Positions 15,133 to 64,000 of a DNA stretch of 64,000 bases are shown piece after piece. The stretch covers positions 360-64,359 of the forward strand of contig SCRA01000027.1 in the NCBI GenBank assembly GCA_004297985.1, in the 5' to 3' direction. A program made the position numbers and the translations under genes. A model generated the notes under the pieces. That model did no database searches. It saw nothing but the letters and a program-made list of their open reading frames with translations, and had not been told where the DNA came from. Within the stretch, counting starts at the first letter, position 1; each line of letters opens with the position of its first letter. Source of the DNA: a bacterium. Lineage in GTDB: Bacteria; Vulcanimicrobiota; Vulcanimicrobiia; Vulcanimicrobiales; SCRA01.

Positions 15133-18100
15133 CTAGATCCAGCGCGTTCCCATCAGCCACATGAGCATCCGCTTCTGCCATTCGTCGTATGGGATCGGGG
15201 TTCCGACCCATATCGGGAACCAGAAGAGGAACGCCCAGGCGACCGCGGCCAGGAAGGCGATGACGGCGATGCGCCCCCAGCGCCCGAAGCTCCTCCACGC
15301 CTCCTGGAGCACGAGGGCGTTTGCCAGGCAGATGATGGCCAGGTTCGGGAAAAAGTGGTATTCGAACGTGATGCGCGGGCTGATCATCCATGGCAGCCAC
15401 TGCCAGAGGTAGGCGCCGATCAACAGCGCATAGCCCTTGTGCCGGCGCACCAGGCCGACGAGGAACATCACCGGGACGCTGAGCAGGCCGAACCACCAGT
15501 TGACCGGGTTGGGGAGCGCCAGGATCTCCGCCACCAGGTGCTGTGCTCCGCCGAAGTCGTGGTAGTAGTAGGAGATCGGCCGCCAGATCAGCGGCCACTC
15601 CCACCAGCGGGCCTGGTACGGATGGGTCGCCTTCAGCTCGTCGTGATAGAGGAACATCTGGCGCTGCAAGCCCATCAGGTCTGCCAGGTTGTGCCCCAAC
15701 GCGAAGTACGGTATGTATGAGAGTACGTAGACGGCGGCGCCTACCAGCAGGATCGCCGCATAGACGACGTCGAGCGGAATGCCGCGCGGGTTGCCCCATT
15801 GAGCGGGCCTGCACCACCAGCGCTGCGAGGCGATCACCGCCAGCCCCATCAAGACCCATCCCAGCGTGAAGAAGCCGTTCCACTTGCTGTCGATCACGCA
15901 CGCGAGAGAGAGTGCCAGGAGCCACATCCAAAGCGTCGCATCACGGGAGCGCAGGCGCAGCGCGCCAGGCTCGATCGCCAGCGTACCGTCGGGCGCAAAG
16001 CACGCTTTCCCCTCCGCGGTGTAGTAACGCTCGCCGCCGTCGCCGGCGAAGCTCACTTCGAGCCCCGCGCGCCTGTAGGACGCCCCCTTCTTGCCGCCGC
16101 CATCATTGGCGGCCGCCTCGACGCGGACATCTCTCCCCGCCGTCTCAACGGTACTTCCGTCGGCATAGCACGCGATCAGGCTCCCACTGCCGTAGAGACG
16201 CGGGAGCAGAAGGCGGGCCGCCAGATATGCCCCCGTCGAGAAGACGACGAAGATGGCGATGCGCGCCGCTATGTCATCGGGGCGTCCGTCGCCGTACACG
16301 ATCGGCGGGCGCGCGAGCACCCACTGCGCCATCAGGCCCACGACCACCGAGGCGGCGACCCCAGCGCTCAACGCCGTCTGCCAGCCTTCGCGCAGACGCT
16401 CGACCACGCGAATCTGCGCGGCGATCACGTAGCGATAGGCGCAGTAGAGCGAAGCCAGCGAGAAGAACGCGACGGTGACCTCCGGCGTCGCGATGCGTGA
16501 CTGGACGAGGTGGAATCCGCTGAGAATCAGCAGGGCGGATGCCACGGCGGCGAAGGGCGTCGAGCGCAGCAGACGCTTAGCGAAGGCATAGAGAAGCGGA
16601 ACGGTGAGACTGCCCATGAACGCCGAAGCCAAACGCCAGCCGAAGCTCGTGAAGCCGCCGGGATAGCCGCCGTTGACGATGATGCCCAACGCGATCAGCA
16701 ACTTGGTGAGCGGGGGGTGTGTCCACTCGAAGACGTCCTTGTGCTGGAGATACTCCTTGGCTGTGCGCGCGTAGTAGATCTCGTCGAAGATCTGCACCTT
16801 GGGGTGGGCGATGCCGATCATCGCCACGATGAGACAGATGATCCCCAGACCGATCGCGATCAGCCAGTCCAGGCGCGTCAACGCTGCCGTCCCCTCCAGC
16901 GGGGAGAACCAAGAGCGCAGCCGCATGCCGAACAGCTCCAGGGGCTTGGCTTCGTTGTTCGCCGCCGTCGTTCGCTCCTCGCCGCCGAGATAGCCGTAGG
17001 CAAGGTACGCAAAGAGCAGAACGTTGAGCACCGATGCGGGGTGGCTCACGAGCGGCATCAAATTCGTGGGATCGAGCCCCGGGACGTGTCCCTGAACGAC
17101 GTTGAGATACGCGTACGAGTAAAGCAAATTGGCGAAAAACGTCGCCGAGAGGACCAATGCCCCGACCAGATAGCGGCGAGCCAGCGGCGCCATCAGCACA
17201 GCGATCGCGAAAGCGTTATAGACGTAGCGCTCGTGCATGCGCGTGGCGAACAGGAAGAGCGCCAGCGAGATCAGCAGCGCCGCCTCGAGGAACCCGCGCT
17301 CATCGCGCCGCTGCACGAAGCGCCAGAGCACCATGGTGGATGCCGCCAGTACGAGCAGCACGCCCCACACGGACTGTGGAAGGAAGGCGATCCACTGACT
17401 ATCCGGCTGCCAGAAATTGCGAGCCACTGCGTAGATGTTGAAGGCATTGATCGAGCTGTACGGATAGACCGACGTGCCATGAACGTAGCGATCGAAGAGC
17501 CAGCTCAACGTGGAGAGCGGATTCAACGGCGCGGGGGCAAACGGCGCCGCGATCGCATAGCCCACCACCACCGCCACCAACGGACCCAGCACCAGGCGTG
17601 GCGTGAGGCGCGGAGCACCATCGTGCACGGCGTCGTACGCTAGCAGGAGCGGAGCGAGCACGAAGGCCTGCGGCTTGATCAAGACGGCGGCGGCAAGCAG
17701 CGCCCAGGCCCAAAGCGACCGGCGGCGCAGTGCCGCCAACAGCGCGCCCAGGGTGAAGAGCGCGGAGACGGCGTCCACCTGCCCCCAATAGGCGGAGACG
17801 TAGATTGCCGCCGGATTGAAAGCGAAGAGCGCCGCCGCAGCGAGCGCGGGAAGGCGCCCCACAAAGCGCAGCGCGGCGGCGTAGATCACTGCGGCACAGC
17901 CCAAGTCGGCGAGGATACCGGGCAGCTTGATCAGATCGCGCAGGACGTAGTAACCGGCGCTCGCATCCGAAACATGGAGCGCGTGATAGAGCCACCCCGT
18001 CGCGGCCAGCACCCAGAGATAGCCAGGCGGATAGTCGACGAAACTGGTGCTGTGGTAGAAGGCGCGGATGCCGTGGTCGTAAAGCGTGAGCGCCCAGCTC

Positions 18101-45997: not shown

Positions 45998-47134
45998 GTG
46001 CGTAACATGACTCGCGTACTCATCGCGGCCGCTGCCCTTGGCGGCACGCTGGCCGCGGCGACCGGCGCCGGCCTCGCCGCCTCGCATCCCGACCTCAAAT
46101 GGACGGCGATCTTCGATGCGACAGGCCCCGCCGGCGCCTATGGCACCTCGCAGAAGAATGCGACGGAGCTGGCTCAGGCCGACATCGATGCCGGCAAGAT
46201 CGACGCCGGCGGACAGAAGATCTCGATCGACGTTCAAGACTCCGCGACCTCGCCGGCGCAGGTCATCAACATCATGCAGTCGGCGTTCGGCAGCGGCACG
46301 TCGCTCATCATCGGCCCGACGCTCTCGAGCGAGGCCTTCAAGTCCGATCCGCTCGCCGTAAAGGCGAACATCTCCGTACTCGGCGTCTCCAACACCGCCA
46401 GCGGCATTCCCGCGATGGGCCCTTGCGTCTTCCGTAACTCGCTCTCCGAGGCGCAGATCGTCCCGGACGTGATCGAGGCCGCGAAGAAAGCCTGGCATGT
46501 GAAGACCGCCGCCATCATCTACGGTGATGACGATCAGTTCACCAAGGCCGACTACACGATCTTCAACGCCGAGCTGCCCAAGGCAGGCGTGAAGGTCGTC
46601 GACGTCGAGACGTTCCACAAGGGCGATGTCGACTTCAAGGCTCAGCTCACCAAGATCAAGGAGGCCAAGCCGGACGTCGTGGTCTACGGCGCGCTCTACG
46701 CCGAGGGCGCCAAGCTTCTCGCTCAGGCACGTCAGGTGGGCCTGAACGCGCACGAGATCGGCGGCAATGGCTTCAACTCCCCGCAGATCATCGCGCTGGC
46801 CGGCAAGGCAGCCCAGGGCGTGATCGTCGGCGCGGCCTGGTACTCCGGCGCAGAGACCAACGGCAATGCCGCCTTCGTCAAGAACTACACGGCGAAGTAC
46901 GCGAAGTCACCAGACCAGTTCGCGGCACAGGCCTATGCGGGTGCGCAGATCGCGGCCGCGGCGGTCAAGAAGTCGCACCCCAGCGATGCCGCCGGCATGT
47001 GCTCGGCGCTCAAGGAGCTGGGCAGCGTTCAGACCGTCATCGGCCCCTTCAAGTTCGCCTCGACGCGTGATGCCGACGCCCACGGCTTCATCGTTCAGAT
47101 CAAGAACGGCACGTTCGCCAAGTTCGGGGATTAG
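45998..47134 (+). CDS. Liv-type (HAAT) ABC transporter substrate-binding protein
   Basis: Signal peptide, TGPAGAYG, DFKAQLTKIK, PDQFAAQAY. Confidence 0.9.
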   Translation: MRNMTRVLIAAAALGGTLAAATGAGLAASHPDLKWTAIFDATGPAGAYGTSQKNATELAQADIDAGKIDAGGQKISIDVQDSATSPAQVINIMQSAFGSGTSLIIGPTLSSEAFKSDPLAVKANISVLGVSNTASGIPAMGPCVFRNSLSEAQIVPDVIEAAKKAWHVKTAAIIYGDDDQFTKADYTIFNAELPKAGVKVVDVETFHKGDVDFKAQLTKIKEAKPDVVVYGALYAEGAKLLAQARQVGLNAHEIGGNGFNSPQIIALAGKAAQGVIVGAAWYSGAETNGNAAFVKNYTAKYAKSPDQFAAQAYAGAQIAAAAVKKSHPSDAAGMCSALKELGSVQTVIGPFKFASTRDADAHGFIVQIKNGTFAKFGD

Positions 47135-47164
47135 CACTCGGGAGAGAGCCATTCACCGCCAAAC

Positions 47165-47201
47165 AAGGGGGGACGGGAGCAAAAGGCTCCCGCCCTCCCT
47201 T
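47165..47201 (+). other. Intercistronic stem-loop after the SBP gene (likely mRNA-stabilising)
   Basis: AAGGGGGGACGGGAGC-AAAAG-GCTCCCGCCCTCCCTT, no U-tract. Confidence 0.65.
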
Positions 47202-47218
47202 CGCGAAATGGGGGGACC

Positions 47219-48103
47219 GTGTTCGACCAGCAGCTCGCCAACGGCATCTTTCTCGGTGCGGTGTATGCGCTATTCGCCGTCGGTTACACGCTGATCTTCG
47301 GCGTGCTCGACATCTTGAATCTGGCGCACTCGGCCATCTTCATGGCCTCGTCATTCGTGGCGCTCGCGCTCGTCCGTCACGGCATGCCGTTCTGGGCGGC
47401 CTTCCTGGTGGCGACCGCCTTCGGCGGCGCGTTGAGCGTGGTGCTCGACCGCGTCGCCTTCGCGCCGCTGCGCGCGCGCGGCGTCGGCGGCGGAGCGCTG
47501 GGCCCTCTGATCTCCTCGATCGCCTTCGGCATCATCGTGGTCTCCGTGGTGCGCGGAATCTTCGGCCCCGACGAAGTGGGCTACCCCACCGGCGCCGTCC
47601 TCAGCGCCAACCTCCATCTCGGCCACGCGACCTTCACGGCGATCGACCTCTCCGTGCTCGTGATTTCGCTCGTGATGATGATCCTGCTCAGCATGCTGTT
47701 GAAGGTCACGCCGCTCGGGCGCGCCATCCGCGCCGTCGCCGAGAATACCAAGGCTGCCTCGCTGCTGGGCATCGACGTCGAGCGGACCATCGGGCTGACC
47801 TTCCTCATCGCGGGGGCACTGGGGGCGGCCGCCGGCATTCTGATCGGCGCGCAGTTCAACGCGGTCGGCATCCTCATGGGTCAGCGCATCGAGCTCAAGG
47901 GATTGGCCGTCATCATCCTCGGCGGCATGGGCTCGATTCCCGGCGCCGTCCTCGGCGGCTTCCTGTTAGGATTGCTCGAGGTCTTCAGCGTCGCGTACCT
48001 CTCCTCAAGCTACCGCGACGCCATAGCATTCGCCGTCATGTTCCTTATCTTGATCGTGCGGCCAGCCGGCCTGCTCGGCAAGCGCGCCGCACGGACGGCG
48101 TAG
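47219..48103 (+). CDS. HAAT ABC transporter permease (LivH-like)
   Basis: QQLANG..GAVYAL.AVGYTLIFGVL.ILNLAH, GRAIRAVAEN, GGMGSIPGA. Confidence 0.92.
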   Translation: MFDQQLANGIFLGAVYALFAVGYTLIFGVLDILNLAHSAIFMASSFVALALVRHGMPFWAAFLVATAFGGALSVVLDRVAFAPLRARGVGGGALGPLISSIAFGIIVVSVVRGIFGPDEVGYPTGAVLSANLHLGHATFTAIDLSVLVISLVMMILLSMLLKVTPLGRAIRAVAENTKAASLLGIDVERTIGLTFLIAGALGAAAGILIGAQFNAVGILMGQRIELKGLAVIILGGMGSIPGAVLGGFLLGLLEVFSVAYLSSSYRDAIAFAVMFLILIVRPAGLLGKRAARTA

Positions 48104-48107
48104 ATCG

Positions 48108-48983
48108 ATGGAATGGTTGGTGCATTTCTACGCGTTGCACTCGAAGCTGATCGATCAGATCGGCATCAACGCGATCTTCGCGCTCTCCCTCTCGCTTACG
48201 CTCCAAGCGGGGCATCTTGCGCTGGCCAACGCCGCCTTCGGCGGGATCGCCGCCTACGTTGCCTCGCTGCTCTCGCTCTCGCGCGGCTGGCCGCTGAGCG
48301 TCACGACGCTGATCGGCGCCGCGGCGGCCGCCGCCGTCGGGGCGGTGATCGGCCTGCCGGTAACGCGCCTGCGCGGCGTCTTCCTGGCCATCGCCACCAT
48401 CGGCTTCGGCGAGATCGCGCTGATCGTGGAGAATAACCTCTCGATAACCGGCGGCGCCGAGGGACTCTCGCAGATTCCCAACGAGACGACGACCTGGAAG
48501 ATCTATCTCGTGCTGGCGATCCTGGCCTTCTTCTTCTGGCGGCTGCGCCGAACGCGCGCCGGCTGGGCGATCGCCGCCGTGCGCGAAGACGAGTACGCTG
48601 CCGCTTCGTTCGGTATCGATCCCGCCCGCGTGAAGTTCTGGACCTTCGTGGGCAGCGCCGCCATCGCGGGCATCGCGGGATCCCTCTACGCCCACGAGAA
48701 CTTCTTCATCTCGCCGGGTGACTGGGGCTTCTCGCGTATGATCGACATCCTCGTCTACTGCGTGATCGGAGGTGCGGCCAGCCCGTGGGGTGCGATGCTC
48801 GGCGCCGCGATCATCTCGCTCCTTCCGGAGGTCTTCCGCTTCTTGCACGACTACCGCGACATCGTCAACGGCATCGTGCTGCTGGCCGTCGTCATCTTCG
48901 CCCCACAAGGAATCGCCGGCCTCTGGTCCCGCGATCAGCGGGGGCGCAAGGCCGCGGCTGCCGCGGAGGGCCAAAGCCGATGA
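48108..48983 (+). CDS. HAAT ABC transporter permease (LivM-like)
   Basis: RLRGVFLAIATIGFGE, TGG.EG, AVREDE. Confidence 0.92.
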   Translation: MEWLVHFYALHSKLIDQIGINAIFALSLSLTLQAGHLALANAAFGGIAAYVASLLSLSRGWPLSVTTLIGAAAAAAVGAVIGLPVTRLRGVFLAIATIGFGEIALIVENNLSITGGAEGLSQIPNETTTWKIYLVLAILAFFFWRLRRTRAGWAIAAVREDEYAAASFGIDPARVKFWTFVGSAAIAGIAGSLYAHENFFISPGDWGFSRMIDILVYCVIGGAASPWGAMLGAAIISLLPEVFRFLHDYRDIVNGIVLLAVVIFAPQGIAGLWSRDQRGRKAAAAAEGQSR

Positions 48984-49750
48984 GCTCCCTCCACTACCAT
49001 GACGTCGGCATCAACTTCGGCGGTGTGCATGCGCTGAGCGGCGTCTCGTTCGACGTGCGGAGCGGCCACGTCGTGGGCCTCATCGGGCCCAACGGCGCCG
49101 GCAAGACCACGCTCATCAACGTGACCACCGGTGTCGTCGCGCCGACCGCCGGCAGCGTTACGCTCGACGACGCACCGCTCTCCGGGCGGCGCCAACATCA
49201 GATCGCGCGCCTGGGCGTCGCACGGACCTATCAGAACATCCGCCTCTTCCCGCGCATGACGGCGATCGAGAACGTGGTCGTCGGGGCGACACGCATTCGC
49301 CGTGACCCGGACCTCGGGGCGTTCGTCTTCCTCCCCGCGGTGCGCCGAGCGCGCATCGAACTCGAGGAGCATGCGCGCTATCTGCTCCATCGCGTGGGCG
49401 TCCCGCGCGACGAGTGGGAGACGGCGGCCAGCGTGATGCCCTACGGCTCGCAGCGGCGGCTGGAGGTCGCGCGCGCGCTGGCGATGCGTCCGCGCGTGCT
49501 GCTCCTGGACGAGCCGGCCGCGGGGATGAATCCCGCTGAGACGGCGGGCCTCCAGGCGCTGATTCGCTCGATCGCCGAAGAAGACGTCGCCGTCATGCTC
49601 GTGGAGCACGACATGCCGCTGGTGATGGGAACATGCGATCGAGTGGCCGTGCTGAACTTCGGGGAGCTGATCGCCCAGGGCACGCCGGCCGAAGTCTCGC
49701 GCGACCCTGCCGTCGTCGAGGCGTACCTCGGATCGGAGGCCGCGCAGTGA
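48980..49750 (+). CDS. HAAT ABC transporter ATPase (LivG-like)
   Basis: GPNGAGKTT, RTYQNIRLF, LLDEPAAG, EHDM. Confidence 0.93.
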   Translation: MSSLHYHDVGINFGGVHALSGVSFDVRSGHVVGLIGPNGAGKTTLINVTTGVVAPTAGSVTLDDAPLSGRRQHQIARLGVARTYQNIRLFPRMTAIENVVVGATRIRRDPDLGAFVFLPAVRRARIELEEHARYLLHRVGVPRDEWETAASVMPYGSQRRLEVARALAMRPRVLLLDEPAAGMNPAETAGLQALIRSIAEEDVAVMLVEHDMPLVMGTCDRVAVLNFGELIAQGTPAEVSRDPAVVEAYLGSEAAQ

Positions 49751-50466
49751 GCGACGTGCTGCTGCGCGTGGAGAGCCTCCACTCCGGCTATGGGCGCATC
49801 GAAGTGCTCCACGGCGTCTCGCTCGAGGTACGCGAAGGCGAGCTCGTCTCGATCGTCGGCGCGAACGGTGCGGGGAAGACCACGCTGCTGCTGACGCTCA
49901 GCGCGCTGGTGCGGACGCGCGCGGGCAGCACGACGCTCGACGGCGTGCGCCTCTCCGGACTGCGGCCCCATGCCATCGTGGCGCGCGGGCTGATCCACGT
50001 CCCCGAAGGCCGCTTGATCCTCGCGCAGATGTCGATCGAGGAGAACCTCCAGCTCGGTGCGGCACGCACGCCGGCCGCCCAGCGGCGCGCCGCCATCGAT
50101 GCGATGTACGCCCGCTTCCCCGTCCTCGGCGAGCGGCGTGCGCTGCCGGCGGGCTCGCTCTCCGGGGGCGAGCAGCAGATGCTGGCCATCGCGCGCGGCC
50201 TGCTGGCCAAGCCGCGTTTGCTGCTGCTGGACGAGCCCTCGATGGGCCTGGCGCCCAAGCTCGTCGACGCCATCTTCTCCATCATCGCCGAAGTGCGGGC
50301 CAGCGGCACGGCCGTGCTGCTCGTCGAGCAGAACGCACGCAAGGCACTGGCACTGGCCGATCGGGCCTACGTGCTGGAGCGCGGGCGAATCACGCTCTCC
50401 GGGCCGGGTAGCGAGCTGCTGCACCAGCCCGCCGTCGTCGAAGCCTACCTCGGATCACACGCCTAA
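49747..50466 (+). CDS. HAAT ABC transporter ATPase (LivF-like)
   Basis: GANGAGKTT, VPEGR, LSGGEQQMLA, LDEPSMGLAP. Confidence 0.93.
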   Translation: MSDVLLRVESLHSGYGRIEVLHGVSLEVREGELVSIVGANGAGKTTLLLTLSALVRTRAGSTTLDGVRLSGLRPHAIVARGLIHVPEGRLILAQMSIEENLQLGAARTPAAQRRAAIDAMYARFPVLGERRALPAGSLSGGEQQMLAIARGLLAKPRLLLLDEPSMGLAPKLVDAIFSIIAEVRASGTAVLLVEQNARKALALADRAYVLERGRITLSGPGSELLHQPAVVEAYLGSHA

Positions 50467-53087: not shown

Positions 53088-53723
53088 TCAACGGCGCACC
53101 GTCAGGAGGCGCAGCACGTCGTGCGGATAGGGACACTCCGGGCGCGGGCAGCGCTCGCCCTCGACGCGCTCTTTCGCGACCAACTCCCAGGGCGCCATCG
53201 CTCGCACTTCCTCCTCCGTGAACAGCGTCTTGATATGGTGGTGTGCGAAGAACGAGCGCTCGGCGCGCTCCTCTTGGGCTGCCTCGCGGCGCATGCGCTC
53301 CTCGGCACCACCGGCTAGATGGACCGAGAGATAGAGATAGCCTCCTGGCGCGACCGCACGACGCAGACGCTCCGCGACATCGACGGCACGCGCGATCTTG
53401 AACGCGTGAAGGACGATCGCGGCGATAACGATGTCATAGGAGCGTTGCGGCTCCCAACTCCGCAGATCGACGGCGCTTGCATGGAGTGCCAGCCCGGCTT
53501 CGCGCGCGCGGGACGCGCAACGCTCGACCGCGGCCTCGGAGCTGTCGATCAGCTCGGCCGCGACCCCCGCGCGCGCGAGCCAGAGCGCATGGCGGCCTTC
53601 ACCGCCGCCGGCGTCGAGCGCGCTGCGCACGCCCCCGAGCGGCAGGTGCTGGACCAAGAACGCGTCGGGGGCCTCGCCGTAGACGCTCTCGGAGCCCGCA
53701 TAGAGTGTATCGAAAAAGCTCAT
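53088..53723 (-). CDS. Class I SAM-dependent methyltransferase (TehB-like)
   Basis: ALDAGGGEGRHALWLAR, YDIV, APGG; ATGA overlap with the upstream crotonase gene. Confidence 0.85.
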   Translation of the reverse strand: MSFFDTLYAGSESVYGEAPDAFLVQHLPLGGVRSALDAGGGEGRHALWLARAGVAAELIDSSEAAVERCASRAREAGLALHASAVDLRSWEPQRSYDIVIAAIVLHAFKIARAVDVAERLRRAVAPGGYLYLSVHLAGGAEERMRREAAQEERAERSFFAHHHIKTLFTEEEVRAMAPWELVAKERVEGERCPRPECPYPHDVLRLLTVRR

Positions 53724-54517
53724 GTACCCGTATACCTCCCGCGGCGGCGTTCGCTGCGCGCGGCCAACGCCTCCCAGTGATCGGCCGAGATCCAGGCACC
53801 GGCAAAGGCCGCTGCCTCGCGCTCCAAGTCCTCGTCGGCATCGCCCAGCGGCACATTCAGCATCTGCTTGATGGTGCGTACGGCGAGCGGCGGATGGGAT
53901 GCGATCTTCCGGGCAATCTCGAGCGTCTCCGCCAGCGCAGCGCCTGCCGGGGCGATGCGGTCCACGAGACCGTACGTCAAGGCCCGCGGCGCGTCGACCA
54001 CTTCGCCCGTCGACATCAGCAAGAAGGCCGTTGACCGCGCGAGCAGCTCCCGGGCACGGGAGATACCGCGCCAGGCGGGAGTCACGCCGATCGTCACTTG
54101 TAAGAAACCTACGCGTCCCCGCTCGTCCAGCACGCGCGCATCCGCGGCGAGGGCGAACTCGAGCCCTCCGCCGTATGCGTCGCCGTTCATCGCCGCCAGC
54201 ACCGGAAACGGCGCGTTACGGATAGCGCGTGCAAGACGCTGCATTCGCAGCGACATCTCCTCGGCCTGTTCGCGCGTCCGTAATCCCGCGAACTCCTTGA
54301 GGTCGCCGCCGGACGTGAAAGTCTTCTCACCGGCCCCGGTGACCACAAGGCAGCCCAGGAGCGGATCGCCTGCGGCCTCCGCGAGCACCTCGGTAATCTC
54401 ATCGATCATGCCGAGGCTGATCGCATTGTGAACCTCCGGGCGACTCAGCGTAATGATGAGGACATGCTCGCTCGCGCGCCGGTTTAAAGCGATCGTCGCG
54501 TAACTCTCGCGCGCCAA
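53720..54517 (-). CDS. Crotonase-superfamily enzyme, possibly an alkylmalonyl-CoA decarboxylase (ECHDC1-like)
   Basis: RPEVHNAI, FTSGGDL, AYGGGLE; second catalytic Glu replaced (GFLQVTIGVTPAWRG); start TTG 54517 after AAGGGGG, or ATG 54541. Confidence 0.8.
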   Translation of the reverse strand: MARESYATIALNRRASEHVLIITLSRPEVHNAISLGMIDEITEVLAEAAGDPLLGCLVVTGAGEKTFTSGGDLKEFAGLRTREQAEEMSLRMQRLARAIRNAPFPVLAAMNGDAYGGGLEFALAADARVLDERGRVGFLQVTIGVTPAWRGISRARELLARSTAFLLMSTGEVVDAPRALTYGLVDRIAPAGAALAETLEIARKIASHPPLAVRTIKQMLNVPLGDADEDLEREAAAFAGAWISADHWEALAARSERRRGRYTGT

Positions 54518-54527
54518 AAAAGCCCCC

Positions 54528-54556
54528 TTGTCTAAAAACATTTAGTATGCTATCGT
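54528..54556 (+). promoter_or_regulatory. Putative sigma-70 promoter for the mutase operon
   Basis: TTGTCT-17nt-TATCGT with extended -10 TGn in an AT-rich divergent intergenic region. Confidence 0.45.
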
Positions 54557-54667
54557 GCCAGTATAGATCAGTTTTCAGCGAGAATCTAGTGGCGTTGAGC
54601 GCCGGGCAGGCTCCACTCGAATCGAGCAACCTCTAGCGATGTGGTATAGGGGGGTGTCGGCGTTTCA

Positions 54668-56263
54668 TTGAGCGAGAAGCGTGACTTTACGACGCCGTCG
54701 GGCATTCCGCGCAAGGCCTTCTACGGACCCGCCGATTGGAACGGATCGCGCTACGCCGAGCAGGTGAACGACCCCGGCGTCTTTCCATTTACGCGCGGCG
54801 TCAAGAGCGAAGGCTACCGGCGCAAGCTCTGGACGATGCGTCAGTACTCCGGCTTCGGCACCGCTCAAGAGTCGAACGCGCGCTACCGCTACCTCCTCGA
54901 CCAGGGACAGACCGGCCTCAGCGTCGCGCTCGACCTCCCCACCCAGCTCGGTTACGATTCCGACGACCCGCGCGCCGAGGAGGAAGTCGGGCGCGTCGGC
55001 GTCGCGATCGACACGCTCGAAGATATGGAGCATCTCTTCGCGGGCATCCGCCTCGACGAGATCACGACCTCCTTCACCATCAACGCCACCGCGGCCGTGC
55101 TCCTGGCGATGTACGTCGCCGTCGCCAAGCGCCAAGGCGCCGATCTACGGCGCATCTCCGGGACGATCCAGAACGACATTCTCAAGGAATACGTCTCGCG
55201 GGGCACGTGGATCTACCCGGTCGAGGCCTCGCTTCGCCTCATCGTCGATACCATCGAGTACTGCGCCGGCGAAGTCCCGCGCTTCAACGCCATCAGCGTC
55301 GCCGGCGCGCACTTTCGCGATGCCGGTGCGACCGCCGTACAGGAGCTCGCTTTCACGCTCTCCGACGGCATCACGTACGTCGAGCGCTGCCTTGCGCGCG
55401 GAATGGCAGTCGATGCCTTCGCAAGCAATATCAGCTTCTTCTTTTATACGCACAGCGACTTCTTCGAGGAGATCGCGAAATATCGCGCCGCCCGCCGCAT
55501 CTGGGCGCGCGTGATGCGCGAGCGTTTTTGCGCGCAGAATCCGCGCTCGTGGGCCTTCCGCTTCGGCCTGGTCTGCGGCGGAAGCACGCTCCAGGCCGAA
55601 CAGCCCATCAACAACGCGATCCGCGTCGCCTACGAGGCGATGGCCTCGATCTTCGGCGGTGCGAGCTCCATCTTCACCGCCGCCTGGGACGAGCCGTTCG
55701 CGATTCCTACGGAGCAAAGCGCTGAGCTCGCCCTGCGCACGCAGCAGATTCTCGCCTTCGAAACCGGAAGCGCCGAGGTGGCCGACCCTCTGGGAGGGTC
55801 GTACTACGTCGAGTCGCTGACGGACGCGACGGAGCGCGAAGTCTGCGCATTGATGGAAGAGATCGAGGGGCAAGGCGGGATGGTTCCCTGCGTCGAGAGC
55901 GGCTACATCCAGCAATTGATCGCCGACCAGGCCTACCAGCGCCAGCGGCGTCTCGAGTCCGGCGACGAGGTGGTCGTCGGCGTCAACTGCTTCCGTACCG
56001 AAGGCTCGACACGCAATCTGGAGCTCTTCCAGATCGACGATTCCTCCGTGCATCGCCAGATCGACAGCCTGCGCGCCGTCAAAGAGCGTCGCGACGGCGC
56101 GCGCGCCGAGCGGGCGCTCGAGGCGCTGCGCGCGGCGACGGGGAGCGGGGAGAATCTGATGCCGCCGTTGATCGAGGCCGTCGAATCCCTGTGCACGCTG
56201 GGCGAAATCTGCGGCCTGCTGCGCGGCATCTTCGGCGAGTTCCGCGAGCCGATCGTCATCTGA
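54668..56263 (+). CDS. AdoCbl-dependent acyl-CoA mutase, large (substrate-binding) subunit
   Basis: [66 protein letters not shown]. Confidence 0.93.
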
Positions 56264-56658
56264 TGCGCATCGTCATCGCTAAGCCCGGACTCGACGGACA
56301 CGATCGCGGGGCGAAGGTCATCGCGCGTGCTCTCGCTGATTCCGGCGCGGAGGTGATCTATACGGGATTGCGCCAAACGCCCGAGCAGATCGCGGCGACC
56401 GTCGTTCAAGAGGATGCCGGCGCCGTGGGTTTGAGCATCCTCTCCGGGGCGCACGTGAGCCTAAGCCGCAAGCTCATCGCATGTCTGCGGGCACAAGGCG
56501 CCGGAGATATCCCGGTGCTGGTGGGCGGAGCGATCCCGCCCGGCGACGTCGAGACCCTCCGTGCGTTGGGCATCGCCGAAGTGTTCCCCACCGGATCCCC
56601 GCTGGCCGAGGTCGTCGCCGCCTTCATGCGTTACGAGCGCGATGGTGCAAAGCGATGA
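56263..56658 (+). CDS. AdoCbl-dependent mutase, small cobalamin-binding subunit
   Basis: [10 protein letters not shown] (DxHxxG), SILSGAH, GGAIP; ATG overlaps the large-subunit stop. Confidence 0.95.
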
Positions 56659-57377
56659 ACGCCGCGATCCGGCGCATCGAACCGCTTCCCCTCGACCGCG
56701 CGTCGTCGCTCTCGGTGCGCACCCTCACCCATCTGCGCGACCTCATCATCGCGGGACGCATCTTGCCGATGACTTGGCTGCGCATGGCCGACATCGCCGG
56801 CGGGCTCGGCACGAGCATCACCCCGGTCCGTTCCGCGCTCCTGGCGCTCGAGCGCGAAGGGCTGGTGGAGATCGCCAAGGCACGCGGCGTGCGCGTGATC
56901 CCGATGACGCGCGCGGATATTCGCGACGCGTATCTCATGCATGAATTTCTCTGCGGAGAGATGGCTGCTCGTGCCGCGCTTACCATCGATGAGCCGCTGC
57001 TCCAGGCATGCCGGGCGCTCCAGCGGCGCATGGAGCGTGCGCTCACGCAACGCTCCAGCGAAACCATCGATGGGCTCAATTGGGAATTTCATCGTGTCAT
57101 CAACGGGTGCGCGCACTCACCGCGCCTTGCCCGCATGCTCCGCCAGGTGACGCGCAGCGTCCCGCACGCGTTCCACCGCCTGGTTCCCGGATGGTCGAGA
57201 AAAGCGATGCCACACCATCGCGCTCTCATCGAAGCTCTGGCATCGGGCTCCGCCGAAGCGGCGCGCACGACGGCCCAACTGCACGTGCGCGTCGGCTGCG
57301 AGCTTCTGCTCGTACGTCTCGAACGTTCAGGTTACTGGAAGAAAGGGACTCATTCACCGCTATCGTCATCATCGTAA
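56655..57377 (+). CDS. GntR/FadR (FCD) family transcriptional regulator
   Basis: [35 protein letters not shown]. Confidence 0.9.
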
Positions 57378-57387
57378 GGAGGCTGCC

Positions 57388-58590
57388 ATGAGGAGAACCC
57401 GCCTGCAGGTGATCGCCGCCGGGGTTGCGGCAACGGCTTTTGTCTTCGTGCTCGGAGGCCCACGCCTTGCCGCGAGCGCCGCCGACAAACCCATCGTCAT
57501 CGGAGCATCGATCTCGGAGACGGGGGCCTACGCCGACAGCGGCAAGCTCGCGCTTCAAGGGTACCAGCTCTGGGTCAAGCAGCAGAACGCCACGGGCGGC
57601 CTGCTGGGACGCCAGATCGAGCTCAAGACCTACGACGACGCAAGCGACCCCGCCACGGCGGTGCGCCTCTACCAACGTCTGATCGATCAGGACCACGTCG
57701 ACCTGATCGTCGGCCCATACTCCAGCGCGGTCACGGCCTCGGTGGCCAACGTGGCGCAGCAGCATCACATGCCCATGATATCCCCCGAGGTCGCCTCCAC
57801 GGCGCCCTTCCAGCGCGGGTTCACGGAGATCTTCCAAGGCATCCAGATCGCCGCCGACTACGTCGAGGGGCCGATGGCGATCGCCAAGGAGAAGGGCTTC
57901 AAGACGATCGCCGTTACCGGTGAAGACACCCTCTTCCCACGCTCGGTCGTCTCCGGGGTCGATGATCTCGCGAAGAAGATGGGCATGACGATCGTCTTCA
58001 ACCAGCTCTACCCGCATAACGCCTCCGATTACTCCTCGATCGTCGAGAAGATGAAGCAGTCCAATCCCGACATCGTCCTGGCCGCTTCGTATCTTCCCGA
58101 CTCGGTGGGTCTGCTGCGCGCGATGAAGCAGGCAAACTTCGCGCCGAAGCTCGTCTACGAAGGCGTTGGCCCAACCGAGCTCTCTTTCGGCACCCAGAAC
58201 GGGAAGGATGCCGATGGCGTGATGGGCACCGGTAACTGGAGCGCCGAGCTCAAGACGCAGGGGAACGCAACGTTCGTCAAGGCCTTCGAATCGACGTTCG
58301 GCCATCCGCCGGACTACCATGCGGCATCGAATTACGCGGCGCTCGAGGTACTGGGCGAGGCCGTCAAGCGCGTGGGCTCGCTCGACTCCGCGAAGCTGCG
58401 CGATCAACTCGCTACGTTGACGATGCCGACCGTCATGGGCACGTACAAGGTGGATCCGAAGACCGGTATCCAGCAAGGCTACAAATCGCTGGTCTTGCAG
58501 TGGGTGAACGGGAAGCAATTCGTCGTCCATCCCAAGTCGTTGGCACAACAGCCGCCGGCTCTGCCATTTCCTTCGTGGTCCACGCGCTAA
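57388..58590 (+). CDS. HAAT ABC transporter substrate-binding protein
   Basis: Signal peptide, IGASISETG, GGLLGRQIEL..YDD.SDP, GPYSS. Confidence 0.9.
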   Translation: MRRTRLQVIAAGVAATAFVFVLGGPRLAASAADKPIVIGASISETGAYADSGKLALQGYQLWVKQQNATGGLLGRQIELKTYDDASDPATAVRLYQRLIDQDHVDLIVGPYSSAVTASVANVAQQHHMPMISPEVASTAPFQRGFTEIFQGIQIAADYVEGPMAIAKEKGFKTIAVTGEDTLFPRSVVSGVDDLAKKMGMTIVFNQLYPHNASDYSSIVEKMKQSNPDIVLAASYLPDSVGLLRAMKQANFAPKLVYEGVGPTELSFGTQNGKDADGVMGTGNWSAELKTQGNATFVKAFESTFGHPPDYHAASNYAALEVLGEAVKRVGSLDSAKLRDQLATLTMPTVMGTYKVDPKTGIQQGYKSLVLQWVNGKQFVVHPKSLAQQPPALPFPSWSTR

Positions 58591-58603
58591 GAATCCGACC
58601 GCG

Positions 58604-59479
58604 ATGCATGCAGCGCTCATCGGCCAACTGACGATCGACGGCCTGCTGGTCGGCGGTGTCTATGCGCTCTCGGCCCTGGGGCTCAACGTGATCTTCGGGG
58701 TGATGCGCATCGTCAACCTTGCCCATGGCGAGTTCGTCATCGGGGCGGCGCTGCTCGCCGCGGTCCTCTTCGAGCGGTGGCACGCGAATCTGTTCGTCGT
58801 GCTGCCGCTCGCCTTCGTGCTGGCATTCGGGCTAGGCGCGCTGATCCAGCGCGCCTTTCTCCGGCGCCTGCCGGAGGATCTCGCGTCCGCGGAGACCACG
58901 TCGCTGCTGATGACCTTCGGACTCTCGTACTTTTTCGTCGGGGCGTGGCTCGCGTTCTTCAGCGGAAACTTCCGCTCCGTTCCCTATCTCACCGGCGCCT
59001 GGACGATAGGACCCTTCTCCATCGCGCAGGCGCGCCTAGTCGCCTTTGTCGCCTCCGGCATCATCGCAGTGCTGTTGGCGATGTTGCTTCGCTACACCGC
59101 GCTCGGACGCTCGATCCGCGCCACCAGCCAAAACCTTCAGGGCGCGCTCGCGTGCGGCGTCGACGTCGAGCGCGTGCGCACCCTGAGCTTCGCGCTGGGA
59201 ACCGCGATCGCGGCAGCCTCCGGCTGTCTTCTCATCCTCATCTTCACCGTTAACCCCGAGACTGGAGCAAACGTCACGCTCGCCTCCTTCGCCGTCATCG
59301 CACTCGGCGGTCTCGGGAACTACGCCGGTACGCTGGTTGGAGCGGCCGTCATCGGCCTTGCTGTCTCGTTCACCGGCTACTTCGCCACGGCGCAAGTGGC
59401 GCAGGCCGCTCCCTACGTGCTCTTCATCCTGGTGCTGCTGGTGCGACCGGCGGGTATCCTGGGAAAGAGCGGCGCATGA
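58604..59479 (+). CDS. HAAT ABC transporter permease (LivH-like)
   Basis: GGVYAL.ALGL..IFGVM.IVNLAHGE, GRSIRA, GGLG. Confidence 0.92.
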   Translation: MHAALIGQLTIDGLLVGGVYALSALGLNVIFGVMRIVNLAHGEFVIGAALLAAVLFERWHANLFVVLPLAFVLAFGLGALIQRAFLRRLPEDLASAETTSLLMTFGLSYFFVGAWLAFFSGNFRSVPYLTGAWTIGPFSIAQARLVAFVASGIIAVLLAMLLRYTALGRSIRATSQNLQGALACGVDVERVRTLSFALGTAIAAASGCLLILIFTVNPETGANVTLASFAVIALGGLGNYAGTLVGAAVIGLAVSFTGYFATAQVAQAAPYVLFILVLLVRPAGILGKSGA

Positions 59480-60407
59480 GAGGGCGCGCGCTGATCGCGT
59501 TCATCATCGTGGTAACGATCCTTGCGCTGGTGCCGCCGTTCCTGAACGGCTACGCGCGCTCGTTGCTCTACATCACCGTCCTCTACGTCGCGCTAGCCTA
59601 CGCGTGGAACGTCATCTCCGGCTACGCGGGCTACCTGTCGTTCGGCCAGGTCACCTTCTTTGGCTTGGGCGCCTATACGACCGCAATCTCGGTCGTCCGT
59701 GGGCATCTGCCGTGGTGGGAGGGGGCGCTGCTAGGCGGCTTGATCTCCGCGGCGCTGGCCGTTCCGCTGGGCTACCTGATGTTGCGGCTGCGCGGCGCGT
59801 TCTTTGCTCTGGGCATGCTGGGCCTGGCACAGACGCTCCAAGTCGTCGCCAACTCCTGGCAACTGACGGGCGGCGGTGCGGGACTCTTTCTCCCGCCAGG
59901 ATCGAATGCGCTTCCCGTCTACTACTGGACGCTGGTCATCGGGCTACTCACCTTCGCCGCTACGCTTTTCATCGATCGGAGCGCGTTCGGGCTTCGCCTC
60001 CAAGCCCTGCGCGAGGACGAGCAGGTGGCCTCGACGCTCGGCGTCCACGTCACCACGACGAAGGTCTGGGCCTTCGTCATCAGCGCGATCGTGCCGGGAC
60101 TGCTCGGCGGCGGCTACGCCTGGTATCTGACCTACGTGGAGCCGGTCTCGGCCTTCGCCACGCGCTTCGATCTCCAAGCCGTGGCGATGACGATCCTCGG
60201 CGGCATCGGCACGGTCTGGGGGCCGCTCATCGGCGGGGTGCTGATGTCGCAGGTCTCCGAGATGCTCGCCGCCCAGTACCCCCAAGCCTACCTGATGAGC
60301 TTCGGCGGTCTGGTGGTGGTCTTGCTGGTCTTCCTCCCGCGCGGTATCGCCCCGGCGGTCAGCGCGGCGCTCGCGCGGCGCCGCGCGCGCGGGGCGCAGG
60401 GTCATCA

Positions 60408-60411
<4 letters not shown>
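59476..60411 (+). CDS. HAAT ABC transporter permease (LivM-like)
   Basis: WNVISGYAGYLSFG..FFGLGAY, RLRGAFF, ALREDE, GGIGTVWGP. Confidence 0.92.
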
Positions 60412-61168
<757 letters not shown>

Positions 61169-61172
<4 letters not shown>

Positions 61173-61882
61173 GCATGCTGAGCGTTCGCGACCTCAACGT
61201 CTCCTACGGGGACTTCAAAGCCCTTCACGGCGTGAGCTTGGAGGTCGACGAGGGAGAGACCGTCGTCATCGTCGGCGCCAACGGCGCCGGCAAGACCACG
61301 ACGATGAAGAGCATTGCGGGCATTCTTCACGTGCGCAGCGGGGAGATCCAGCTCTGCGGCGAGCGTATCGAGCGCAAAAGCCCGCGAGAGATCGTGGAGC
61401 GCGGACTGGTCCTGGTCCCCGAGGGACGCCATCTCTTCGCCGAGATGACCGTCCAGGAGAACCTGCTGGTCGGTGGGCAAGCGGTACGCTCCCGCCGCAA
61501 CCTGCGCGCCAATACCGCGGCGATGGAGGAACGCTTCCCCATTCTCGGCCAGCGCCGCAGTCAGGCCGCCGGAACGCTCTCCGGCGGCGAGCAGCAGATG
61601 TTAGCGGTCGCCCGCGCGCTGATGTCCGAACCGCGCATCATCTTGATGGACGAGCCCTCGATCGGCCTTTCGCCGTTGTTGACGGCACGCATCTTCGCCA
61701 TGGTACGGGAGATCAACGGGATGGGCATTACCGTCGTTCTGGTAGAGCAGAACGTGGTGCAATCGCTCGAGCTGGCGACTCGCGCCTACGTGATCGCCGA
61801 GGGGCGTGTGGTCTTACAGGGCGGCGCAGCCGAAATCCGCGGCCACGCCGACGTCAAACGCGCATATTTGGGAGAAGTATGA
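61169..61882 (+). CDS. HAAT ABC transporter ATPase (LivF-like)
   Basis: GANGAGKTT, VPEGR, LSGGEQQMLA, DEPSIGLSP. Confidence 0.93.
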
Positions 61883-62982
61883 AGACATCGCCGACCACGA
61901 CAGAGCTACGCCCAGGCGAGGACCTCGTGGAGACCTACTTCGATCAGCCCTGGTCCGACGGGCTCCCCGTCGTCCCGCCGACGCCCGAGAAGGTGGCGGC
62001 GATGGTGGCGTCCCTCGGGAACGAGGGCGCCCACCTCGAGTGCCGCGTTCCGCCGCGCTACGGCAACCTCACGCGCGAGGTGCTGGCGGTCAATCTCGTG
62101 ATGGCGGGATGTAAACCGGAATACGCCCCGGTGGTTCGCGCGGCGCTGCTCGCCCTCTGCGATGCGCACTTCAACCTCAACGGCGTCCAGGCAACCACGC
62201 ACATGGCGGCACCGCTCCTGGTGGTCAACGGTCCGGTCAGACACGAGATCGGGATGAATGCCGGCTGCAACGTCTTCGGCTCCGGGAACCGCGCCAACGC
62301 CACGATCGGACGCGCGATCCGGCTGGTCTTGCTCACCGTGGGCGGCGCGAAACCGGGTGACCTCGACAAGAGTACGTTGGGCCACCCGGGCAAGTACACC
62401 TACTGCATCGCCGAGAATGAAGAGGCGAGCCCCTGGGCACCCTACCACGTCGATCGCGGCTACGCGCCGGAGCAGAGCACGGTCTTCGTGATCGCCGCCG
62501 AGCCGCCGCATAGCGTCACCAACCACGTCGCCAACGACCCGCAGGGCATCCTCGACAGCATCGTCTCGGCGATGAGCACCTTCGCACATAACAACTCGGT
62601 TTCGGGCGGCTCATGCGCCGTGGTCATCGGCCCCGAGCACGCCGCCACGATCGCGCAGCACGGTTGGACTCGCAACGACGTACGCAACTACCTGTGGATG
62701 AACACCACCAATACCTTCGACCAGATCAGCTTCGGTCACCGCTACGGGAAGATCTACAACCGCAACCTACCGCGCTGGTACAAGCGCGAAGACGGGGCGC
62801 GCATTCCCATCGTAGCCTCACCTGACGACATCCATCTCTTTGTCGCCGGCGGCGAGGCGGGCCGCTTCTCCGCCTTCATCCCAGGCTGGGGGCACATGAC
62901 CAGCCCAGTCCTGCGCGCGATCGATGGAGAGGCGCCCATGGCGGGAGGACCGCTCTGCGTCGATGGAACCTGCCGCCTGTGA
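61879..62982 (+). CDS. Uncharacterised UGSC-associated protein (WSDGLPVVPPT type) with C-terminal CVDGTC
   Basis: WSDGLPVVPPT, AVNLVMAGCKPEY, GNRANATIGRA, ENEE.SPW; ATGA overlap with the ATPase gene; directly upstream of the UGSC gene. Confidence 0.8.
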   Translation: MKTSPTTTELRPGEDLVETYFDQPWSDGLPVVPPTPEKVAAMVASLGNEGAHLECRVPPRYGNLTREVLAVNLVMAGCKPEYAPVVRAALLALCDAHFNLNGVQATTHMAAPLLVVNGPVRHEIGMNAGCNVFGSGNRANATIGRAIRLVLLTVGGAKPGDLDKSTLGHPGKYTYCIAENEEASPWAPYHVDRGYAPEQSTVFVIAAEPPHSVTNHVANDPQGILDSIVSAMSTFAHNNSVSGGSCAVVIGPEHAATIAQHGWTRNDVRNYLWMNTTNTFDQISFGHRYGKIYNRNLPRWYKREDGARIPIVASPDDIHLFVAGGEAGRFSAFIPGWGHMTSPVLRAIDGEAPMAGGPLCVDGTCRL

Positions 62983-63013
62983 GCGAGAGCAGACACCTGA
63001 AGGAGAAAGCACG

Positions 63014-63529
63014 ATGATCTACGATCCGACCGGCGTCGTCGAGGCCCAGCCCAAACCGCTCGCCCCACGCCTAGCTAACCTGCGCGGTCTACGCCTAGGC
63101 GTCCTCGACAACACCAAGTGGAACGGCAACAAGCTGCTGCGAGCCATCGTCGCTCTGCTGCAACGCGACGACGGCATCGGCGAAGTCCGCTACTACAAGA
63201 AGGAGAGCTTCTCGAAGTCGGCCGACCCGGCGCTGATCGCAAGCATCGCCGCCGAGAACCAGGCGGTGCTCACCGCGATCGGCGATTGAGGCTCGTGCAC
63301 GTCGTGCTGTATGCACGACGCCATCTCGCTCGAGGAGCTCGGTATCCCTAGCGCCGTCGTCGTGACGGAGGTCTTCCTCCACGAGGCCCAAGTGCAGCGC
63401 GCGGCGCTGGGCATGGAGAGCCTCGACCCCGTAGTGATCGCCCATCCCTTGAGCACGCTGACCGAGGCGCAGATCGAGGAGCGCGCACGCGAAGCGGTCG
63501 CCCAAGCGCGCCAACGCTGGTTGGGTTGA
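63014..63529 (+). CDS. UGSC-family selenoprotein (171 aa, Sec92 encoded by TGA 63287-63289)
   Basis: The two ORF-track fragments 62924-63289 and 63311-63529 are in one frame joined by a single TGA, giving AIGD-U-GSCTSCC; AAGGAG RBS before ATG 63014; SECIS-like hairpin follows. Confidence 0.88.
63290..63320 (+). promoter_or_regulatory. Bacterial SECIS-like element
   Basis: Perfect 8-bp stem CGTCGTGC/GCACGACG with loop TGTAT; loop starts 18 nt after the UGA and has G at position 2 followed by U. Confidence 0.75.
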
Positions 63530-63554
63530 ACCGAGGAAGGAGCACCGTCCGGAT

Positions 63555-64000
63555 ATGTTGAGTCCTGATCGCAGCGAGTTCGAGCGAGAGATCGTCGACG
63601 AGGTTCGCCGCTTCGTTGATCGTGAGATCCGGCCCGTCGCCCACGCGATGGAGCAGAGCGATACCTTCCCGGCCGCACTCGTCGAGCGAATGAAAGAGCT
63701 GGGGCTCTTCGGGGCGACGATTCCCGAGGAGTACGGCGGCGTCGGCCTGAGCGTCGTCTCGTACGCCTCCATCATCGAGCAGATAGCCCACGCATGGATG
63801 AGCGTCAGCGGCATCCTCAACAGCCACCTCATCATGTGCTACGACATCTTCCGCGGCGGGACGGAGGAGCAGCGCGCCCGCTGGCTGCCGCTGATGGCGA
63901 CGGGCGAGCGCCGCGGGGGCATCGCGCTCAGCGAGCCCGGCGCGGGGACCGATCTTCAGGCGATACGCACCACGGCGACGCGCGACGGCGACTGGTACGT
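63555..64000 (+). CDS. Acyl-CoA dehydrogenase (partial, runs off window end)
   Basis: Hand translation MLSPDRSEFEREIVDEVRRFVDREIRP...ELGLFGATIPEEYGG...GTEEQRARWLP...ALSEPGAGTDL. Confidence 0.92.
   Translation, partial: MLSPDRSEFEREIVDEVRRFVDREIRPVAHAMEQSDTFPAALVERMKELGLFGATIPEEYGGVGLSVVSYASIIEQIAHAWMSVSGILNSHLIMCYDIFRGGTEEQRARWLPLMATGERRGGIALSEPGAGTDLQAIRTTATRDGDWY

Follow-up and report, generated by a model that had tools for sequence, protein, structure and literature searches.

A distinct B12-dependent acyl-CoA mutase and an atypical crotonase as a candidate module for the breakdown of substituted succinates in a Vulcanimicrobiales bacterium

The window analyzed here is a 64,000-nucleotide stretch of a genome placed in the Vulcanimicrobiales (GenBank assembly GCA_004297985.1, contig SCRA01000027.1, positions 360 to 64,359), referred to below as G000:C10:360-64359, with G000 the source genome, Gnnn and Lnnn the compared genomes and loci, and Cnn contigs. 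Near its end lies a run of plus-strand genes for the two subunits of an adenosylcobalamin (AdoCbl)-dependent acyl-CoA mutase, a regulator, an ABC importer, a UGSC selenoprotein with its partner and an acyl-CoA dehydrogenase, with a gene for a crotonase-fold protein running divergently from the mutase. Our analysis suggests, at a probability of roughly 0.6, that the core of this locus is a distinct B12-dependent acyl-CoA mutase acting with an atypical crotonase to convert a bulky 2-substituted succinate into an acyl-CoA fit for beta-oxidation, and that the UGSC pair is separate from it.

The mutase and its clade

The large subunit of the mutase (54668..56263, plus strand) matches PF01642, and the small subunit (56263..56658, plus strand) has an intact DGHDRG motif, so that both parts expected of the acyl-CoA mutase family, a PF01642 large subunit and a B12-binding domain with DxHxxG, are present. 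Numbered by alignment to the methylmalonyl-CoA mutase (MCM) of P. shermanii, the enzyme retains Y89, Q197, R207, H244 and E370 and carries the substitutions F117L, Y243A, E247D, H328G, Q330V, H364F and N366A. In MCM, Tyr89 and Arg207 hold the substrate carboxylate, while Tyr243 is thought essential to radical control, and Y243A cripples the enzyme. Passages of PMC6759758 offered nothing about such residues. None of the MCM pocket residues Tyr243, His328, Gln330 and Asn366 is found in the window mutase, which has A, G, V and A at these positions.

The changes are fixed well beyond this genome. A243, D247, G328, V330 and F364 occur in all 120 nearest homologues, a set picked by similarity to the region holding these residues and thereby biased toward the signature. 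Among 80 mutase loci from GTDB genomes, 37, mostly in Actinomycetota, keep G328 and V330, and 36 of the 37 also have A243; the signature recurs on plasmids of Paraburkholderia, Marinobacter, Sulfitobacter, Diaphorobacter and Streptomyces. In a tree made from a quick search, 31 of the 65 rows form one clade (SH-aLRT 99) apart from the MCM-, isobutyryl-CoA mutase- and ethylmalonyl-CoA mutase (ECM)-type rows. Given the changed pocket and the separate clade, the mutase is very probably not an ordinary MCM, in keeping with the initial annotation. The closest named homologues carry the label Candidatus Eremiobacterota, and the clade extends from such proteins to Actinomycetota (19 of 241 sampled Actinomycetes), plasmids of Pseudomonadota and others, with Sulfitobacter dubius DSM 109990, Paraburkholderia and Streptomyces among its cultured hosts.

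His328Gly is a trait of ECM, and the ECM-type rows (L281, L288, L289) share G328 with the clade, but they keep Y243 and Q330 and branch elsewhere; Streptomyces and Frankia genomes hold mutases of both kinds. By a rough sum of side-chain volumes, the pocket has lost about 250 cubic angstrom of side chain in the clade versus about 80 in the ECM-type rows. On this crude, roughly threefold difference, the more likely substrates carry a group bigger than methyl, or have a gem-dimethyl carbon.

The source genome encodes at least four other mutases. One, at G000:C82:37085-38683, is of the MCM type, and three lack Y89 and R207: an F89/Q207 form on C21 and C78, probably one gene broken across contigs, an I89/Q207 form at G000:C58:11160-12833 and an odd V89/L165/Q207 form at G000:C16:7764-9362. 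A V89/L165/Q207 mutase is also encoded on a Shinella plasmid (L267:6104-12985), in one operon with genes for an aminotransferase, MeaB, a crotonase and a CoA ligase, and possibly has another specificity. Mutases with Y89 and R207 and other pockets (I287/A364/S366 or S287/F328/G330/A366) were seen at L039, L072, L062, L081 and L078.

The crotonase, the gene neighborhood and its borders

The crotonase-fold protein (53720..54541, minus strand), which with the mutase makes up the module core, is predicted to be a substituted-malonyl-CoA decarboxylase. Its first catalytic Glu is retained and the second is replaced by Gln; Gln stands at the second position in all 30 crotonase loci read from clade genomes. 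Crotonase-type malonyl-CoA decarboxylases (ECHDC1, MmcD, CarB) likewise lack the second catalytic Glu of the hydratases. Mutase and crotonase occur in the identical 7 of 401 genomes of the phylum; in 241 Actinomycetes, 19 encode the mutase, 19 the crotonase and 18 both, the centre genome G409 included, the exceptions being G451 (unpublished; mutase alone) and G515 (crotonase alone). Overall, the crotonase is present in 34 of 37 mutase-clade genomes. This co-distribution, together with the loss of the second Glu, supports the earlier suggestion that a decarboxylase-like crotonase goes with the mutase. A second, frame-broken crotonase copy was seen in G294, 10 kb from the intact one (L215:5813-6509, 15790-16557).

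Neighborhoods were counted in 48 clade loci besides the window. In 42 of them, the mutase has a class III CoA-transferase gene beside it; the transferases of the actinobacterial and proteobacterial loci are 49-63% alike, and those of G199 and G294, two genomes with a closely similar block, are about 30% identical to these, with a 56%-identical match to the latter on contig C29 of the source genome. In Actinomycetes, an F420 enzyme is encoded near the mutase in 31 of 37 cases, and CoA ligases, paired dehydrogenases, P450s and thiolases are further neighbors, which suggests that the module there performs the last part of a more extended catabolic pathway. A compact operon with the same mutase residues (IclR, crotonase, mutAB, CoA-transferase, MeaB-like) is found on four proteobacterial plasmids, with a TRAP/TAXI/TTT transporter behind it on three; such a unit suggests that a small dicarboxylate is taken up and its product fed into central metabolism. 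As a single case, in Diaphorobacter a second mutase operon with L89/N207 adjoins the clade operon, residues which we take to match pivalyl-CoA mutase.

In the window, a 126-bp intergenic region (54542..54667) separates crotonase and mutase genes and is presumed to be a shared promoter region; no sigma-70-like site was called within it, and a promoter and terminator scan gave no more matches than in shuffled sequence. Every gene listed in the initial annotation was confirmed at its place, as was the tight packing: of the ten junctions on the plus strand, six are overlaps of 1 or 4 bases and four are gaps of 10-31 bases. The run had been expected to continue past the window; it ends instead with the acyl-CoA dehydrogenase, which faces a convergent arg operon. 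Accordingly, neither a CoA-transferase nor meaB, an epimerase or an electron transfer flavoprotein (ETF) was found downstream of the dehydrogenase. Elsewhere, the source genome has two meaB and 12 CoA-transferase matches.

The block from crotonase to dehydrogenase is absent at the matching site in the congener G001, which has no mutase and where the methyltransferase gene (75%) follows argD within a few bases. The block is therefore an island, either gained in the source genome or lost in G001, and the methyltransferase belongs to the older neighborhood. Four of five genomes of the genus have the full block, with livF overlapping or abutting the UGSC partner gene where the block is kept; G003 has the dehydrogenase elsewhere. 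In G294 and G199, crotonase, mutAB, GntR and importer are kept, with the identical divergent arrangement of crotonase and mutase, and a CoA-transferase stands in place of partner, UGSC and dehydrogenase genes.

The GntR/FCD regulator (56655..57377, plus strand) stays with the mutase in all seven phylum genomes that have the latter. It is followed on the same strand by a complete HAAT ABC importer set (57388-61882), assigned by family match: the LivK-like substrate-binding protein (57388..58590), livH (58604..59479), livM (59476..60411), livG (60408..61172) and livF (61169..61882). The binding protein has only distant relatives among solved structures (best E 3e-24), and its orthologues in G294 and G199 are about 60% alike. 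Another HAAT importer, at window positions 46000-50466, is conserved in G001 and is not tied to the island. The S-adenosylmethionine-dependent, TehB-like methyltransferase (53088..53723, minus strand) had been paired with the crotonase in the initial annotation. The crotonase does belong with the mutase; the methyltransferase, given its place behind argD in G001 and its presence in just 2 of 48 other clade loci, was rejected as a pathway member and is a bystander outside the conserved module.

The selenoprotein pair and the dehydrogenase

The UGSC gene (63014..63529, plus strand) has an in-frame TGA at 63287-63289 which, when read through as selenocysteine (Sec) 92 in a UxxCxxC-type site, gives a 171-aa protein above the PF24696 and NF041046 cut-offs. 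A SECIS-like hairpin with an 8-bp stem and 5-nt loop follows (63300..63320, plus strand); alone, its z is only -0.7 to -2.4. In the aligned homologous loci, TGA is found in 56 of 69 and TGC or TGT in 13, and the hairpin accompanies TGA, not being conserved where Cys is encoded. As selB and tRNA-Sec are present in the source genome, selenocysteine in this protein is well supported by the sequence, and the original selenoprotein call holds.

In the UGSC model (pLDDT 93), alternating beta-alpha units make up what appears to be a flavodoxin-like parallel alpha/beta fold, and the fold matches listed are of the flavodoxin/Rossmann-like kind (best Z 11.1, rmsd 3.3, 133 aligned); this differs from the thioredoxin-like fold suggested in PMC2398784. 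The UGSC profile had no significant match among PDB sequences, and PF07355, TIGR04483 and TIGR01918 (PrdB/GrdB) do not match the window protein. A PrdB-like selenoprotein of the same genome resembles the UGSC model weakly around Sec (E 0.0043; hhalign P 0.0015, probability 16%), a lead only. That PrdB-like protein (UxxC) lies at G000:C21:5364-6032 (L207:1237-1905, minus strand), with TIGR04483 E 1e-55, below cut-off; its gene stands alone between GGDEF-like and peroxiredoxin-like genes, and no prdA was seen beside it. PrdB cleaves C-N bonds (PMC13188914). The UGSC pair probably works as a thiol/selenol reductase of the PrdB-like kind on a substrate of its own.

The partner, an unnamed 367-aa protein with a C-terminal CxDGxC (61879..62982, plus strand), has no Pfam or NCBIfam match; at least 120 homologues at 74% or more are among the matches listed; the partner alignment left out seven locus-derived rows. 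Its model (pLDDT 89) has no clear fold match: the best Z overall is 6.2, and the class I fumarase fold, the top Foldseek group, with TM 0.25, Z 5.6, rmsd 5.6 and 189 aligned, is a lead at most. The partner may be the 'Unknown_1' protein described beside UGSC proteins in PMC2398784. Of 80 partner loci from metagenomes, 62 have UGSC next in line, and other settings of the pair include a dioxygenase, thioredoxin reductase, CoA-transferases or TRAP systems, consistent with a separate mobile module. The source genome has a second pair, in the TGA form (G000:C22:45300-48400, L125), among CoA-transferases, a CitE-like lyase, MaoC proteins, a CoA ligase and TRAP/HAAT transporters. In G001, a stretch of about 65 kb with CoA-dependent catabolic genes holds eight partner-family copies, two of them fused to a UGSC-like domain (G001:C32:1-65000, L118-L121).

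The acyl-CoA dehydrogenase (ACAD; 388 aa; 63555..64000 in the window and on to C10:65080, plus strand), the last gene of the run, is likely accessory. It is FadE3-like and keeps its catalytic Glu in a GEG motif, which the available part of PMC8360864 lists for methylsuccinyl-CoA dehydrogenases, with GGG in IaaF. The genes of close relatives adjoin those for MaoC, PrpD, a lyase and a CoA-transferase; the best plasmid relatives are 65% alike, and one lies in a lyase-MaoC-PrpD-ACAD-transferase cluster, a type of layout tied to methylsuccinate use in the part of PMC12290011 available. Motif and context would therefore point to branched succinates, loosely so because the dehydrogenase has no orthologue in G294 and G199 and because the itaconate-type cluster of the source genome uses another dehydrogenase. 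That itaconate/methylsuccinate-type cluster (G000:C29:95455-102214, L308) encodes a thiamine diphosphate enzyme, Ich-like and PrpD-like proteins, a dehydrogenase, a Ccl-like protein and a CoA-transferase. In G002, a 96%-identical CoA-transferase gene directly follows that of the methyltransferase.

A possible route, its rivals and the known systems

On the observed families, residues, clade, co-distribution and Sec signals, a route may be proposed in which a bulky substituted succinate is the best substrate class, as anticipated by the earlier suggestion of a bulky substituted dicarboxylate. The HAAT importer would bring in the dicarboxylate, with GntR governing the divergent promoters, and a class III CoA-transferase, here supplied in trans from elsewhere in the genome, would activate it. 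The mutase would then carry out a 1,2-shift from the R-succinyl-C1-CoA thioester to a substituted malonyl-CoA; Tyr89 and Arg207 would still bind the carboxylate left free, and space for the substituent would come from Y243A, H328G and N366A. Decarboxylation by the crotonase would draw the reaction forward, and the dehydrogenase, as an accessory, would oxidize the product or the other (C4) thioester isomer. Precedents may be seen in IaaL-IaaGH-IaaF (PMC8360864) and, reversed, in MatBQ (PMC5719088), as each is described in the parts of those papers available. Within this reading, we judge the chance to be about even that the substituent is gem-dimethyl or an alkyl group bigger than methyl (2,2-dimethylsuccinyl-CoA, for example, would pass through isopropylmalonyl-CoA to isovaleryl-CoA), with aryl and methyl substituents each considerably less probable. 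A tentative idea is that the clade opens 2,2-dimethylsuccinyl-CoA and so is, among dicarboxylate enzymes, the counterpart of pivalyl-CoA mutase.

Several observations weigh against such a route. The window lacks a CoA-transferase, MeaB and epimerase, and one query found no epimerase in the 48 clade loci either. A HAAT importer is an unusual carrier for dicarboxylates, and the dehydrogenase of the C29 itaconate-type cluster is only 32% identical to that of the window. Related genomes are not independent in any of the co-occurrence counts. No decarboxylase is among the top NCBIfam or PDB matches of the crotonase, CarB lying far down (E 1.6e-21), and loss of the second Glu fits other crotonase reactions too.

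The last two points lead to a reading in which the mutase assignment is right and the crotonase catalyzes a different step on either side of it, as a hydratase, isomerase or hydrolase. The top matches of the crotonase are all generic enoyl-CoA hydratases, its ESM Atlas comparison likewise gives generic hydratase clusters, and one retained Glu suffices for several crotonase reactions. However, a mutase with Y89 and R207 yields a malonyl-type product requiring decarboxylation and the compact plasmid operons encode no other decarboxylase, which makes this reading rather unlikely. Slightly better, though still improbable, is a catabolic reversal of ECM, from methylsuccinyl-C1-CoA to ethylmalonyl-CoA and butyryl-CoA. 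The shared H328G, the methylsuccinate/itaconate-type clusters around relatives of the dehydrogenase and a possible resemblance of the crotonase motifs to those of the ethylmalonyl-CoA decarboxylase ECHDC1 would all fit; yet the ECM-type rows keep Y243 and Q330 and show the smaller side-chain loss in the rough sum given above, Streptomyces and Frankia genomes have both enzymes, and the source genome already holds its separate itaconate-type cluster. The database label, the retained Y89 and R207, and the crippling effect of Y243A in MCM would suit an ordinary or decayed MCM paralogue, which is nevertheless very improbable given the canonical MCM-type gene on C82, the substitutions fixed over several phyla and the intact reading frames. 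Finally, the clade might be the known phenylsuccinyl-/benzylmalonyl-CoA mutase IaaGH, its chemistry already described and the decarboxylase partner alone differing. The two-subunit layout with CoA-transferase and regulator is alike in the available part of PMC8360864, and loss of Tyr243 would accommodate a phenyl ring, but single queries found hydantoinase in none of the 48 clade loci and a xanthine-oxidase-type match in one, and the window dehydrogenase has GEG rather than the IaaF-type GGG; we regard this identity as quite unlikely.

A different question is whether the selenoprotein belongs to the mutase pathway. The initial annotation envisaged a required Sec-dependent step on a heteroatom-substituted (e.g. 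sulfur) dicarboxylate, and held that a lack of co-occurrence between mutase and UGSC genes would speak against it. Such a lack is largely what was found: of 48 other clade loci, three have the pair next to the mutase, every one of them in a congener; among 37 distant genomes with the mutase, 31 lack the partner family and 6 have it; and 18 of the 24 phylum genomes (of 401; one, G232, unpublished) with a partner orthologue have no clade mutase. Moreover, a CoA-transferase replaces the pair in G294 and G199, the pair occurs in many unrelated settings, and the mutase is in none of the 80 metagenome partner loci, only about 10 of which extend the 7.3 kb upstream needed to show one. Nothing pointing to sulfur was found in the analysis. 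On the other side stand the retention of the block in four of the genus's five genomes, where livF overlaps or abuts the partner gene, the weak likeness of UGSC to the C-N bond cleaver PrdB (PMC13188914), and the partner orthologue in 6 of the 7 mutase-bearing phylum genomes, of which four are of this genus and two have it unlinked. At least in this genus, then, a PrdB-like selenoenzyme and its partner might reductively strip a heteroatom from an imported succinate derivative, with mutase and decarboxylase dismantling the branched or quaternary skeleton, but we consider a B12-selenium link of this kind unlikely. More probably, the UGSC pair forms a module of its own which, among the genomes sampled, stands next to the mutase in this genus only. 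A one-pathway island, if real, would give UGSC its first substrate and join Sec and AdoCbl chemistry in one route; otherwise the locus adds little for UGSC, being one more setting of an already known pair.

Few acyl-CoA mutase specificities are known, and databases call this clade MCM despite its fixed loss of Tyr243. If the proposed pairing of mutase and crotonase is right, it would add a B12-dependent way to break down dicarboxylates with branched or quaternary carbon, along with a bacterial family of malonyl-type decarboxylases; the tight pairing of the mutase with one crotonase and a CoA-transferase makes a three-enzyme set open to direct assay. We found no literature on the clade or on a UGSC pathway, in a search of partial coverage that does not establish absence from print.

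The isobutyryl-, 2-hydroxyisobutyryl- and pivalyl-CoA mutases have Tyr89 and Arg207 replaced, unlike the window mutase, which has both. With MCM (P. shermanii 1REQ), the window enzyme shares the TIM-barrel large subunit, the B12 subunit and the five retained residues, and differs at the seven substituted positions and in its clade. ECM (Ecm/MeaA) has the dicarboxylate-type site and H328G in common with it, but the window mutase is split rather than fused, has N366A instead of N366P, has lost Y243 and Q330 and lies on a different branch. The MatBQ/ActD hexylmalonyl-CoA mutase, also of two subunits and proposed for long-chain alkylmalonyl/alkylsuccinyl-CoA, is by its description in the available part of PMC5719088 biosynthetic, with Ccr and an epimerase; single queries found neither in the 48 clade loci. 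IaaGH with IaaL and IaaF of Aromatoleum, as described in the available part of PMC8360864, follows a like logic of CoA transfer, mutation and decarboxylation of a bulky malonyl-CoA, and is set apart by context: in the window the crotonase is the predicted decarboxylase, the dehydrogenase motif is GEG, and no indoleacetate upper pathway is nearby. The itaconate clusters with their (RS)-methylsuccinyl-C4-CoA dehydrogenase (available part of PMC12290011) share the layout found around relatives of the window dehydrogenase, and the likeness comes from that context, Ich and Ccl being absent from the window operon. A further relative is the uncharacterized actinobacterial mutase beside the F420 enzyme TIGR03564 (MSMEG_4879 family), which is of the same clade, 58-64% identical and has the same residues, with the CoA ligases, paired dehydrogenases, P450s and thiolases around it unlike the window; its M. 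smegmatis counterparts are presumably MSMEG_4881/4880.

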